From Escherichia coli (GTDB taxonomy: Bacteria > Pseudomonadota > Gammaproteobacteria > Enterobacterales > Enterobacteriaceae), in assembly GCF_003334815.1 (NCBI RefSeq), contig NZ_QOWO01000060.1: a stretch of DNA of 10,787 nt. One strand, written 5' to 3'. Shown here piece by piece: positions 3,288 to 4,842 of this stretch. The position numbers and the translations under genes were made by a program. Numbering within the stretch: the first letter of the stretch is position 1; each line of letters starts with the position of its first letter. A model generated the notes under the pieces. That model made no database searches, was not told the DNA's origin, and saw nothing but the letters and a program-made list of their open reading frames with translations.

Positions 3288-3383
3288 GAAAACAGCGCGC
3301 CACCTTCACCGGCATAACAACCGGGGAGAAACGTAAAAAATAATCGGGAATGTGACCGCCAGGAGATAAACGGGGAGGTTGCG

Positions 3384-3650
3384 GTGGCTGAGCCGTACCG
3401 GTATACCGGGTGGTTGTTGCGAAAAGATGCTTCCGCACGCACGCGCGATAAAGAGGGGATAGTTTTCGTGAGGACAGGGAGAGAGGCAGGCGTTCTGATA
3501 ATTGCAGAGTTGTTTTCGGAGGTGGTTACAGTGAGTCAGCCCGTTCCTGGCGAGGAGGAGACTGATATCACCGATGGGATAAGGCTGTCTGATTGGTATT
3601 ATAAATATAAGAAGTCATCAGAGAGTAACGTAAAGGATTTGCCAGAGTAA
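3384..3650 (+). CDS. Hypothetical small protein (88 aa), GTG start, unrecognised
   Basis: GTG at 3384 sits 5 nt after GGGGAGG (3372..3378), a good Shine-Dalgarno arrangement. Product MAEPYRYTGWLLRKDASARTRDKEGIVFVRTGREAG...SDWYYKYKKSSESNVKDLPE has no homolog I recognise, so this may be a chance ORF. Confidence 0.2.
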   Translation: MAEPYRYTGWLLRKDASARTRDKEGIVFVRTGREAGVLIIAELFSEVVTVSQPVPGEEETDITDGIRLSDWYYKYKKSSESNVKDLPE

Positions 3651-3691
3651 GCTAAGAGAGTAAATCTCTCCGGTAACAGAGCGCTGTGAAT

Positions 3692-3723
3692 CGTTCATGT
3701 ATCAGAGTGCAGATACATGAACG
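3692..3723. repeat. Perfect 12-bp inverted repeat (CGTTCATGTATC / GATACATGAACG) with 8-nt spacer, followed directly by a 6-bp-stem hairpin (3723..3741)
   Basis: Read directly: 3692..3703 is the exact reverse complement of 3712..3723, and GCTGAT (3723..3728) pairs with ATCAGC (3736..3741). No U-tract follows on either strand, so this is not a classic intrinsic terminator. Confidence 0.85.
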
Positions 3724-3986
3724 CTGATGCGTAAAATCAGCAGTGACACGCCAGCTCCCCCTGTGCCCATTCCTGTATAAGACATGAACTGAGCGTATTA
3801 ATGCTCCTGCCCTGAGACTGAGCCGGTGAGTGAGGGGCTGAGAAATCCCTCTTGACACTGCTCTAAACCAGAAATACTTCCCCGGTTGTTGCGGTGCGTC
3901 CGGATCCCCGATAACGGAACACTAAGGCTGTATTGCGGGACACCTGGTAAGTGGCAGCCCGTAATACGTCAGGAGACGCGGGAAAA

Positions 3987-4127
3987 GTGAATTCCCACAC
4001 GCGTTATAAACTTACCCTTGCGGAGCTGGAAGCCTTTAACTCTGCCGTTGACAACCGGCTGGCAGAACTGACAATGAACAAACTTTACGATCGCGCGCCG
4101 GCTTCCGTCTGGAAATATGTCACCTGA
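3987..4127 (+). CDS. Hypothetical small ORF (46 aa), GTG start
   Basis: AGGAGA at 3971..3976 lies 10 nt upstream of GTG 3987; product [46 protein letters not shown]; TGA at 4125..4127. No recognised homolog; below the ORF-track size cutoff. Confidence 0.15.
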
Positions 4128-4779
4128 ATATTGAAGCAGCGCTACGATGACTCCGGTGTTATCTGCACCGGAGGACCGGGAACATTAAGCGGTATAGCGA
4201 CAACAAAGAATTCGAAATCAAAAGGGAATGGTGCCGGAGGCGTGGGCGGTAATAGGCTGATTTTCAGGTATTACCGGCCTGTATCTGCTGAAGGGGGCTC
4301 GTATTTGTCGGGGCTGCGTATTCCGCTCGATTCGATCACGGATTGGCGGAATACCTAACTGTGATTGATTCAGGTACCATTTTGCAGGGATCCGGTGCGT
4401 TACTGTCTGGCACAACAAACGCAGCGGGTCGCTCTGCTCCGCCGATTCCTGATAATCCCTCCCCAGTAACCTACTGCAACAGTACAAATACACTGACGCC
4501 TGAAACGGTAACCAGAATCAGCACCAGCAGTAACTCAGTAAACAGAGCAGACGATCGGTCTTCCGGTAATAACCGGAAGGAACGACAGCGCCACAATACA
4601 GGCAACACACTGTATTATGAGTAATCGAATTACCGCAATCCCCGCATTTCTTTTTGCGTATCACGATAGCTCCCTCGCCACGCCTTATCCGTAACCGGTT
4701 TTTTACATTAAAAAAAACAACGCCGGGAATTCAATCGTCAGTCCGGAGACGACCGTTCGGGTTATCACAGAGAGCCTGA

Positions 4780-4801
4780 GCAGGGGGGCTGCGCATTTTT
4801 T
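4780..4801 (+). terminator. Weak terminator-like element: GC-rich 4-bp stem (GCAG/CTGC, GGGGG loop) followed by a T6 run
   Basis: GCAGGGGGGCTGC at 4780..4792, then GCA and TTTTTT (4796..4801), about 40 bp upstream of the YagK/YfjJ-like start. The stem is short, so this is tentative. Confidence 0.25.
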
Positions 4802-4815
4802 ACGATGTGGCTATT

Positions 4816-4834
4816 CCGTATGAACCATACGGAG
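4816..4834 (+). promoter_or_regulatory. Hairpin overlapping the Shine-Dalgarno of the YagK/YfjJ-like gene
   Basis: CCGTATG (4816..4822), AAC, CATACGG (4826..4832) is a perfect 7-bp inverted repeat; its 3' arm overlaps GGAG (4831..4834), 8 nt upstream of ATG 4843. Confidence 0.3.
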
Positions 4835-4842
4835 ATATAACC

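Follow-up and report, generated by a model that had tools for sequence, protein, structure and literature searches.

A stretch of about 1.5 kb (positions 3288–4842) with few open reading frames lies between an Ag43 gene fragment and a YagK/YfjJ gene in the window, i.e. the whole 10 787-nt stretch of Escherichia coli DNA analysed here. This is long for an enterobacterial intergenic region and raises the question of what it contains; an earlier note on the same DNA had proposed a small RNA resembling isrC or a decayed GTPase-like gene. The stretch is very probably the standard spacer of the CP4-44-family ‘Ag43 island’, located between the divergent alpA-like and YagK/YfjJ (Rep-like) genes, and with equally high confidence we regard it as a graveyard of small genes together with the control regions of both neighbours, rather than as an sRNA locus. 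The locus is ordinary and already known, and one of its genes, hha3, has been published. It comprises the following features.

3236–3243, minus strand: deletion joint, at which the start codon (3243–3241) and first codons of an alpA-like HTH/excisionase gene are fused to Ag43 at about nt 147.
3244–3383, minus strand: former 5′ leader and putative promoter region of the alpA-like gene, now orphaned.
3384–3650, plus strand: 88-aa ORF, hypothetical protein WP_000840364.1.
3692–3741, no strand assigned: 12-bp hairpin (3692–3723) abutting a 6-bp hairpin (3723–3741), in a hypervariable segment upstream of hha3.
3951–4127, plus strand: hha3 (GTG start at 3951), encoding a 58-aa N-terminally truncated Hha/YmoA-family paralogue (RefSeq WP_001344112.1).
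4151–4173, plus strand: 8-bp GC-rich hairpin, 24 nt past the hha3 stop codon.
4471–4667, minus strand: pseudogene, labelled ‘frameshifted’ by RefSeq in strains G5 and FAM21845, of a zinc-ribbon (CxxC...CxxC) protein of 65–66 aa that has one transmembrane helix, at its C terminus.
4697–4730, plus strand: A/T palindrome, promoter-like region of the yagK-like gene by consensus match.
4773–4801, plus strand: short stem (5 bp, 4773–4790) and T6 run (4796–4801), z = +0.69 in the window.
4815–4845, plus strand: hairpin with an 8-bp stem, sequestering the Shine–Dalgarno sequence (GGAG, 4831–4834) of the yagK-like gene.

In intact islands, the stretch is flanked on one side by an alpA-like excisionase/HTH gene on the minus strand and on the other by a YagK/YfjJ gene on the plus strand. 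The annotated order alpA-HTH gene, 88-aa ORF, Hha-family gene, small minus-strand gene and inovirus-Gp2 (YagK) gene was found in E. coli G5, FAM21845 and 042 and in 13 further loci. Positions 3236–4842 of the window were 100 % identical to G5, and across 3236–4278 there was one mismatch in 1043 nt (99.9 % identity) with the hha3 locus of EAEC 042. The hha3-type upstream segment was found in 2828 of 5426 complete genomes and the locus type is present in approximately half of complete E. coli genomes. This mainly clears the apparent anomaly of a long ‘empty’ enterobacterial intergenic region: the stretch belongs to a mobile island that is very common, and it is decaying. The two ends of the spacer showed 85–92 % identity between loci, which is the level of the island backbone, and two middle segments were hypervariable (47–55 %).

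Blastn searches of the K-12 islands CP4-57, CP4-6 and CP4-44, including isrC, yeeP and the regions upstream of yagK and yfjJ, gave flu as the sole match, so that a relationship to the intergenic regions of these islands, as envisaged earlier, found nothing in its favour beyond flu. Apart from misfiled chromosomes, phage and plasmid collections gave nothing but similarity of the Hha-coding part to hha genes of plasmids, at about 75 % identity, and a scan for loci of other species with a yagK-like protein returned two short contigs resembling E. coli contamination. The DNA pattern used on metagenomes, with 15 specified bases, was too short, and nearly all of its 120 loci were chance matches; five of the 120 loci, plus three viral contigs, were usable. 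Clustering of ORFs across loci was uninformative and was discarded, since in conserved DNA any frame will cluster. When all ORFs of the region were searched against NCBIfam, Pfam, PHROGs and PADLOC, the Hha match described below was the only one obtained.

The stretch had been taken for a natural intergenic region between Ag43 and yagK. Its left boundary is instead a deletion joint at 3236–3241, where a 6-nt overlap (GTAGCC) is present on either side, identity to G5 runs rightwards from 3236 and homology to K-12 flu stops at 3236. Comparison with FAM21845 showed that positions 5541–10028 of locus L145 were missing from the window, and with this 4.5-kb deletion the alpA start (its first three codons) has been joined to the internal Ag43 fragment and the yeeP–isrC–flu promoter segment of the island has been lost. 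The fusion would have left the alpA-like leader and promoter orphaned. A decayed YeeP/YfjP GTPase or DUF932 gene, the other candidate put forward for the stretch, was not recovered, as tblastn with the island GTPase, K-12 YeeP and DUF932 was empty inside 3288–4842 and the only DUF932 match in the window was at 1441–1686.

On the minus strand, 3244–3340 folds at −34.5 kcal/mol (z = −3.4), and within the leader UUCUCCCCGG pairs with the alpA Shine–Dalgarno sequence CCGGAGGAA; as at the other end of the spacer, the alpA-family gene's own leader would also mask its ribosome-binding site (RBS). Mean pairwise identity of the leader among 12 related loci was 92.5 %, compared with 93.1 % for the alpA gene itself. 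Segment 3244–3609 was considered as unusually conserved and rejected, since calibration on the flanking genes placed it at or below the backbone level. Conserved RNA structure in 3244–3612 was likewise rejected, the alifold result (SCI 0.59–0.66; z from −2.3 to −3.0 against a lenient control of simply shuffled columns) being unconvincing at > 80 % identity.

The view that no convincing protein gene occupies the stretch was wrong for 3951–4127. This ORF matched Pfam HHA (PF05321) with E = 1.6e-17 over model positions 14–57 of 57, and NCBIfam Hha (NF008191) with E = 2.5e-18 over positions 27–71 of 72 (66.1 bits, compared with a curated cutoff of 90); it is annotated by RefSeq, and its 177 nt are identical to the published hha3 (EC042_4796; EAEC 042 5138133–5138309), which encodes the same protein. 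One of the two small ORFs described earlier as weak, 3987–4127, is real coding sequence within hha3, its GTG being an alternative internal start candidate with AGGAGA 11 nt upstream; the frame of the other, 3384–3650, is not conserved. The published hha3 (4796) primers match the window with 0 mismatches (forward 3973–3992, reverse 4105–4126). The forward primer for hha2 (4516) also matches the window perfectly, and the distinction between hha3 and hha2 thus depends on the reverse primer, which has three mismatches on the window, including its 3′ end. In the 042 hha3 locus (Prieto et al., 2016, Sci Rep 6:25973), the ORF, its flanks and its neighbours (alpA-like gene, 88-aa ORF, yagK-like gene, Ag43 island) are as in the window. 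The 042 locus differs in that it keeps the alpA-like gene, the GTPase gene and a complete Ag43 gene, whereas the window has lost the segment running from alpA to Ag43; the small minus-strand gene of 042 is intact and of another allele type, whereas that of the window is frameshifted.

Hha3 aligned to just residues 26–71 of Hha (PDB), short of the complete four-helix domain of about 70 aa. Over these residues it shares 57 % identity with chromosomal Hha (PDB 1JW2 and 4ICG), and Asp48 is retained (aligned segment SAADHRLAEL). Identity with Hha2 (EC042_4516), a member of the same family encoded as an intact 70-aa protein at the syntenic site of another 042 island, is 94 % over residues 24–70. Compared with Hha2 and Hha, Hha3 lacks the first 25 or so residues (helix 1 and most of helix 2) and has 11 unrelated residues in their place. 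It would have been derived from the Hha paralogue of the island by a deletion of about 21 nt and a 1-nt deletion in an A-run, which removed helices 1–2; by chance, the site of the former start codon, now a GTG, would have stayed in frame with the remaining C-terminal two-thirds of the protein. Single-sequence AF2 models of low confidence (pLDDT approximately 70) placed helices at 6–16, 19–28, 35–60 and 63–68 in Hha2 and just at 23–43 and 51–56 in Hha3, with none in its first 22 residues.

PMC4519777 describes D48 of Hha as essential for H-NS binding. Hha3 keeps this residue but the four-helix Hha fold is probably out of its reach, and Hha3 would therefore be expected to be weakly active or inactive. 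Deletion of hha3 is nevertheless reported to alter expression of one ag43 allele (Prieto et al., 2016), so that some activity may be left in the truncated protein or in its RNA; according to PMC4864382, hha, hha2 and hha3 each modulate ag43 allele EC042_2242, and hha3 is expressed at a level far below hha and hha2. The pN/pS of the Hha C-terminal domain was 0.18, compared with about 1.4 off-frame (alpA 0.15, yagK 0.26), which suggests past selection, and because this low value includes copies with N-terminal defects the truncated forms could still be under selection rather than recently broken. The gene hha3 has been put forward as a marker for detecting virulent E. coli by PCR and is regarded as a regulator; because it encodes just the C-terminal two-thirds of an Hha protein, its reported regulatory role should be looked at again. 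Downstream of the gene, the hairpin at 4151–4173 is probably what is left of the hha terminator. Its T-rich tail is present in other alleles and missing in the window, which in the alignment lacks about 70 nt following the hairpin, and the equivalent place of the 042 hha2 locus (L014 8746–8762) has a terminator-like stem with TGATTCTTTT.

Upstream of hha3, ORF 3384–3650 is most likely non-coding DNA. It had no match in Pfam, NCBIfam, PHROG or PADLOC, and its frame is disrupted by 1–2-nt indels in most relatives. That the ORF, or its C-terminal part starting from an internal GTG near 3533 that is preceded by GGAGG, encodes a real small protein is highly improbable, even though RefSeq annotates it in several genomes, its pN/pS of 0.59 is the lowest of the three frames (0.89 and 0.80 for the other two) and the part encoding ITDGIRLSDWYYKY is open in all relatives, the 042 hha2 locus included. 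This invariant part is equally invariant in nucleotides and so carries no coding signal, and the N-terminal half varies freely at the protein level. A real product could be a partner of Hha, as TomB is for hha. The near-invariant blocks within the non-coding DNA are 3489–3518 and 3566–3609, and the second contains an extended −10-like motif (TGnTATTAT, 3594–3602) that, as read from the sequence, may mark a promoter.

The strong hairpins and small ORFs noticed earlier all exist. The 12-bp perfect stem (3692–3703/3712–3723, 8-nt loop) and the adjacent 6-bp hairpin (3723–3741) fold together at −23.4 kcal/mol (z = −4.1 on the plus strand and −5.1 on the minus strand), the 8-bp stem at 4560–4567/4572–4579 gave z = −3.4/−4.2, and ORFs are found at 3384–3650, 3951/3987–4127, 4131–4358 and 4343–4624. 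The region has five perfect stems that are 8 bp or longer and enclose loops of 3–10 nt, compared with an expectation of 0.17; among 300 dinucleotide shuffles not one had as many, and their longest stem measured 10 bp. The strong excess of perfect hairpins is only partly accounted for.

As conserved RNA structures, the same hairpins fared less well. Both the 12-bp and the 8-bp hairpin are lineage-specific and degrade in close relatives without compensatory changes. In loci L003, L005, L009, L017 and L019 the left arm of the 12-bp stem has lost 1 nt, in some cases together with a G>A change, and no compensating change is seen in the right arm; the other allele type has unrelated sequence at this place (mean identity of 55 % over 3610–3950). 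The 8-bp hairpin (4560–4579) falls within the S-G-Y-Y-R-K codons of the pseudogene at 4471–4667. A small regulatory RNA, whether isrC-like or new, with the 3692–3741 hairpins or the 4773–4801 stem and T6 run in its structure is very unlikely to be encoded here. Such an RNA would be consistent with the enrichment and individual stability of the hairpins, with the extended −10-like motif seen by eye some 90 nt before the 12-bp hairpin, and with the short leader RNA predicted upstream of yagK in relatives, where some 80 nt separate a promoter-like site from the terminator-like hairpin that follows it. However, Rfam had no match to the window at the gathering score, nor to 3200–4900 at E ≤ 5, and blastn with K-12 isrC gave just 18–23-nt chance matches (E of at least 0.07). 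In addition to the imperfect, uncompensated 12-bp stem and its absence from the other allele type, no T-run follows the 3692–3741 hairpins on either strand, the alifold values of the conserved block were obtained against a lenient control, and the yagK leader hairpin lacks covariation and is half deleted in the window. The isrC sRNA and yeeP pseudogene of K-12 CP4-44 belong to the same island family and lie upstream of flu; in the island they are situated between the GTPase gene and flu, which is the segment deleted here, and the region has no sequence similarity to them.

The expectation of decayed genes in the stretch was borne out in spirit. A frameshifted remnant does exist, but on the minus strand at 4471–4667 and not in the overlapping G/S/T-rich frames of the plus strand where it had been sought. 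The remnant is homologous to an unnamed family of small zinc-ribbon proteins (WP_001297900-like; tblastn 8e-20), and the gene is intact in eight related loci. The window copy has a 1-nt deletion between 4534 and 4535, an ATG-to-ATC change at the start codon and a leucine in place of the family-invariant Pro23 (P23L, the sole invariant column); one inserted base restores the ORF. As it stands, the copy lacks the family's open frame of 64–66 codons, in which CxxC-N10-CxxC is combined with a hydrophobic helix at the C terminus. The family consists of 75 clusters, nearly all of them from E. coli/Shigella, and had no Pfam match. The intact protein gave weak matches to PHROGs of unknown function, its maximum Kyte–Doolittle hydropathy (19 residues) was about 3.0, and the pN/pS of the gene was 0.3–0.7.

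The right end of the spacer would consist of the yagK-like promoter, a terminator-like leader hairpin (partly deleted) and an RBS-sequestering hairpin. The promoter-like block is 91.5 % conserved; a candidate −35 hexamer (TTTACA) lies at 4702–4707, and the corresponding −10 is GAAAAT in relatives and GGGAAT (4725–4730) in the window. At the homologous place, a promoter scan found TTTACA-16-GAAAAT in L003 and TTGGCA-16-GAAAAT in 042, and returned nothing at this place in the window. The A/T palindrome near 4697–4720, previously listed among the hairpins, folds no better than shuffles (z = −0.97). Of the stem plus T6 reported at 4780–4801, the T6 run is present but the stem has just five pairs. 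Comparison with relatives indicates that this element is the remnant of a conserved terminator-like hairpin of about 48 nt in the yagK leader, from which 24 nt have been lost internally in the window; the T6 run follows the stem after 5 nt in the window, compared with a 13-pair outer stem and a T6 run after 2–4 nt in relatives. In 11 distinct relatives, 96.7 % of cells were paired, compared with 27–46 % with slid partners, and no compensatory changes were detected. The hairpin at 4815–4845 (−13.5 kcal/mol, z = −3.9) is invariant in all relatives, a loop insertion in L004 and L014 leaving the stem intact, and when the outer stem from 4807 is included, the start codon of the yagK-like gene (ATG, 4843) is sequestered as well.

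The yagK-like protein matched YagK_YfjJ_C (9e-48) and, weakly, REP_ORF2-G2P (3e-5), possesses an H-Y-H motif (KKHYHLMLL) and is named ‘inovirus Gp2 family’ by RefSeq. Rolling-circle Rep genes commonly adjoin hairpin-containing origins. These points would fit a reading of the conserved palindrome and neighbouring sequences upstream of the yagK-like gene as DNA elements and not RNA signals, namely an origin or nick site for a Rep-like YagK/YfjJ protein that replicates the excised island, which we nonetheless consider highly improbable. Alleles differ in the loop and the inside of this palindrome but keep the outer stem and T6 run, a pattern that a terminator fits better than a sequence-specific nick site, a literature search found no replication function for YagK/YfjJ, and the window copy of the element lacks 24 nt.

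For the terminator-like reading, a resemblance was seen to AlpA-dependent antitermination in Pseudomonas aeruginosa (Pena et al., 2021, PMC7969949), in which an AlpA-family gene adjoins a target that has a promoter followed by an intrinsic-terminator-like hairpin, as in the intact relatives. In contrast to that system, the yagK promoter has no GGGACG-N5-GGTA element (the ABE motif), and the alpA gene is deleted in the window. The HTH protein of the island had weak PDB matches, to 8c3t (‘AlpA family phage regulatory protein’, organism unstated; E = 0.004) and to TorI (E = 0.03). With no ABE motif and such weak matches, the analogy was set aside as a resemblance.

In intact relatives, the promoter-like site, the leader with its terminator-like hairpin and the RBS-sequestering hairpin form a conserved unit ahead of the yagK-like gene, opposite the alpA-family gene. 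It is improbable that this unit is an undescribed attenuation/antitermination switch or Rep origin controlling replication or excision of the widespread Ag43 islands, with the 65-aa zinc-ribbon membrane protein representing a new small-protein family acting in it; if so, the window would hold a disabled copy. The unstudied small zinc-ribbon membrane protein and the conserved leader hairpins beside a Rep-like gene could in this way bear on island control. In some alleles, a competing hairpin was found upstream of the terminator-like hairpin in the yagK leader.

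The 1555 bases at window positions 3288–4842 are the alpA–yagK spacer of an Ag43 island of the CP4-44 family, in which the published hha3 gene lies. The spacer also holds a frameshifted gene for a small zinc-ribbon membrane protein and what is left of the flanking genes' control regions, and the whole of it was brought beside the Ag43 fragment by deletion. Nothing in the region is new in kind. A megablast search of 5426 complete E. coli genomes gave an identical (100 %) copy of the 1555 bases in strain G5 and 426 records at ≥99 % identity; 3726 genomes had portions of the region, with up to nine copies in each. 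RefSeq annotates the following features.

3384–3650: hypothetical protein, 88 aa
3951–4127: 'Hha/YmoA family nucleoid-associated regulatory protein', WP_001344112.1
4471–4667, minus strand: frameshifted hypothetical gene
4843–5412, plus strand: 'inovirus Gp2 family' (YagK/YfjJ) gene, directly after the region

The earlier note saw no convincing protein gene here, which does not hold for ORF 3951–4127. This ORF matched Pfam HHA (E = 1.6e-17, model positions 14–57 of 57), aligned to residues 26–71 of solved Hha structures (1JW2, 4ICG) and scored 66 bits against NCBIfam Hha (profile positions 27–71 of 72), under the cutoff of 90. EAEC strain 042 possesses two extra Hha paralogues, hha2 (EC042_4516) and hha3 (EC042_4796), near the Ag43 genes EC042_4511 and EC042_4803 (Prieto et al., PMC4864382). 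The first 042 island has an intact 70-aa 'hha' (MEVKTKEDWLYQFRRCSSRETLEKVISHTRYKL...) between alpA-like and yagK-like genes, whilst the second is annotated with WP_001344112.1 and WP_000840364.1, five genes from Ag43, accessions that are shared with G5. Window 3951–4127 was nucleotide-identical to the 042 ORF, and one of 1043 positions differed from 042 over 3236–4278. The published hha3 primers matched without mismatch at 3973–3992 and 4105–4126, and the hha2 reverse primer had three mismatches to the window. This identifies the ORF as hha3, a truncated paralogue of Hha. The best sigma-70-like match of the region (TTGACA-16-GACAAT, 10/12) lies inside its coding sequence, at 4048–4075, and is probably coincidental.

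Alignment with hha2 and other allele types revealed that in hha3 the ancestral ATG has become GTG, ~21 nt of the helix 1 coding sequence have been lost and a single A has dropped out of an A-run at about 3980; these two losses bring the old start into the reading frame of the C-terminal two-thirds. In the second common allele type (L002-like, after a related locus) a net 14-nt deletion puts the ATG out of frame, and other alleles carry C-terminal deletions or stop codons; the island hha gene has therefore been lost repeatedly. The pN/pS of the Hha C-terminal domain was 0.18, compared with ~1.4 off-frame, and alpA (0.15) and yagK (0.26) were similar, which points either to recent inactivation or to some constraint still acting on the truncated forms. 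Hha3 retains Asp48, which is required for H-NS binding (PMC4519777). Single-sequence AlphaFold models, indicative only because pLDDT was about 70, gave the expected helices for Hha2 and, for Hha3, helices only at 23–43 and 51–56 with a disordered N-terminus. Expression of hha3 is far below that of hha and hha2, and all three genes influence one ag43 allele (Prieto et al., PMC4864382); an hha hha2 double mutant served as 'hha null' in later work by the same group.

Ag43, taken initially for the natural left neighbour, is not so placed elsewhere: in G5 and 16 other loci this position is occupied by an alpA-like helix-turn-helix gene (minus strand), and the window has a deletion joint there. Leftward identity to G5 stops at 3236, where K-12 flu homology also ends. 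The window was collinear with the locus of strain FAM21845 (L145) at 99–99.8 % identity, with the exception of two missing segments. The first (L145 1887–3983) runs from DUF932 to the Ag43 3' part, leaving a joint at window 1684–1686 where a DUF932 C-terminal fragment (1441–1686, minus strand) abuts the Ag43 3' part. The second (L145 5541–10028) extends from nt ~147 of Ag43 as far as codon 3 of alpA, with a joint at 3236–3241 (6-nt overlap, GTAGCC). This deletion took with it the promoter and signal peptide of Ag43, a YeeP-like GTPase gene, two genes for hypothetical proteins, and alpA. The 'Ag43 fragment' ORF (1644–3287) starts at an ATG in the former alpA leader. The Ag43 gene there is an internal fragment, and the 547-aa ORF is chimeric and lacks a signal peptide.

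The unusual look of the stretch was correctly described and is accounted for by its being this spacer, and the small ORFs exist as described. The proposed sRNA or decayed GTPase-like gene found no counterpart: Rfam gave no match at gathering score anywhere in the window and none at E ≤ 5 in 3200–4900; K-12 isrC gave chance matches only; the island GTPase, K-12 YeeP and DUF932 had no translated similarity in 3288–4842; and K-12 CP4-6, CP4-57 and CP4-44 had no nucleotide similarity to the region.

Mean pairwise identity across 12 loci.
alpA-like gene: 93 %
alpA leader, 3244–3383: 92.5 %
3384–3609: 85 %
3610–3950: 55 %
Hha C-terminal domain: 85 %
4128–4470: 47 %
small gene: 78 %
4668–4842: 91.5 %
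yagK-like gene: 94.5 %

By these values the ends of the spacer are ordinary backbone, with a mosaic segment on either side of hha. The window-type segment 3612–3950 occurred in 2828 genomes at 95–100 % identity, mostly as a single copy, and is not a dispersed repeat. Two related loci (L006 and L007) have an extra ~190-nt segment at window position 3837/3838, within the hypervariable part that precedes hha.

A repeat search recovered the reported perfect stems of 12 bp (3692–3703/3712–3723) and 8 bp (4560–4567/4572–4579), with additional 8–9-bp stems at 4151/4166, 4318/4346 and 4815/4826. Five perfect stems of ≥8 bp with 3–10-nt loops were observed against 0.17 expected, a count reached in none of 300 dinucleotide shuffles (longest shuffle stem ≤10 bp). 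The hairpins called strong were so at 3685–3745 (−23.4 kcal/mol, z = −4.1; minus strand z = −5.1) and 4560 (z = −3.4/−4.2), but neither the A/T palindrome (z = −0.97) nor the stem plus T6 at 4773–4801 (z = +0.69) stood out in the window. For the 12-bp and 8-bp hairpins, conservation of structure was not borne out. The 12-bp hairpin lies within the hypervariable segment 3612–3950; in five close relatives its left arm has lost one nucleotide, in some of them with a mismatch as well, and no compensating change is seen in the right arm, whilst the other allele type has a different sequence at the site, and no sign of maintenance was found in these comparisons. Alifold detected no convincing conserved structure on either strand of 3244–3612.

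The 8-bp hairpin is lineage-specific and sits in codons for S-G-Y-Y-R-K of the small minus-strand gene; it owes its perfect stem solely to a Phe-to-Ser change in the window's lineage. Related loci have at this position (4471–4667) an intact gene of 64–66 codons, whose product is MVIRKKKCRDCGNAITHNTVCCPYCGSVDPFGYYRNTDR followed by a hydrophobic helix. A database search placed the family in 75 clusters, almost all from E. coli or Shigella, named 'hypothetical' or 'zinc-ribbon domain-containing' and without a Pfam domain. The N-terminal zinc ribbon and a GYYRxTDR motif are conserved, and the C-terminal helix exists in at least three sequence versions, all hydrophobic. The pN/pS was 0.3–0.7 and several copies are damaged. 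The window copy has lost 1 nt between 4534 and 4535 (adding one base restores the frame) and has ATC in place of ATG and Leu at the sole invariant column (Pro23). A frameshifted remnant, as suspected, therefore exists, but on the minus strand, the plus-strand frame 4343–4624 being its antisense.

In relatives the A/T palindrome overlaps a promoter-like site (TTTACA or TTGGCA, 16 nt, GAAAAT); in the window the −10 position reads GGGAAT, and a promoter scan found no such site at its palindrome. Downstream, relatives have a ~48-nt hairpin with a 13-pair outer stem, then CGCATTTTTT, and next an invariant hairpin over the Shine–Dalgarno sequence, whose outer stem also covers the ATG. The window lacks 24 nt of the first hairpin, the remainder being the stem plus T6. 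Among 11 distinct sequences 96.7 % of cells pair, compared with 27–46 % in slid controls, and no pair is changed on both sides, so that the data agree with the leader structure but do not prove it. The yagK-like protein matched YagK_YfjJ_C (9e-48) and, weakly, the rolling-circle Rep family REP_ORF2-G2P (E = 3e-5); an H-Y-H motif (KKHYHLMLL) in it suggests an HUH Rep-like enzyme. Given the weak Rep match the hairpin palindrome could also be a DNA element, although its variable inner part and conserved T-run argue against this. At the equivalent of ~4760–4785, L004, L017 and the 042 hha2 locus (L014) form an 8-bp hairpin (TATCTCAG/CTGAGATA), perfect or nearly so, that overlaps the left arm of the terminator-like stem and could be a competing antiterminator structure.

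ORF 3384–3650 matched no protein family and has little coding signature, and in most relatives indels of 1 or 2 nt break it. All related loci, the 042 hha2 locus (L014 8055–8195) among them, keep the ITDGIRLSDWYYKY frame at ~3566–3609 open, but the DNA itself is invariant there and so gives no coding signal. On the minus strand, the orphaned alpA leader (3244–3340) folds at −34.5 kcal/mol (z = −3.4), UUCUCCCCGG pairing with the alpA Shine–Dalgarno region; taken with the RBS-masking hairpin of yagK, both divergent genes may be translationally masked. The yagK-like protein also appeared at 94–100 % identity on short contigs in two non-enterobacterial assemblies, of Paenibacillus tengchongensis (L015, 683 bp) and a Collinsella MAG (L016); these contigs most likely stem from contaminating E. 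coli DNA.
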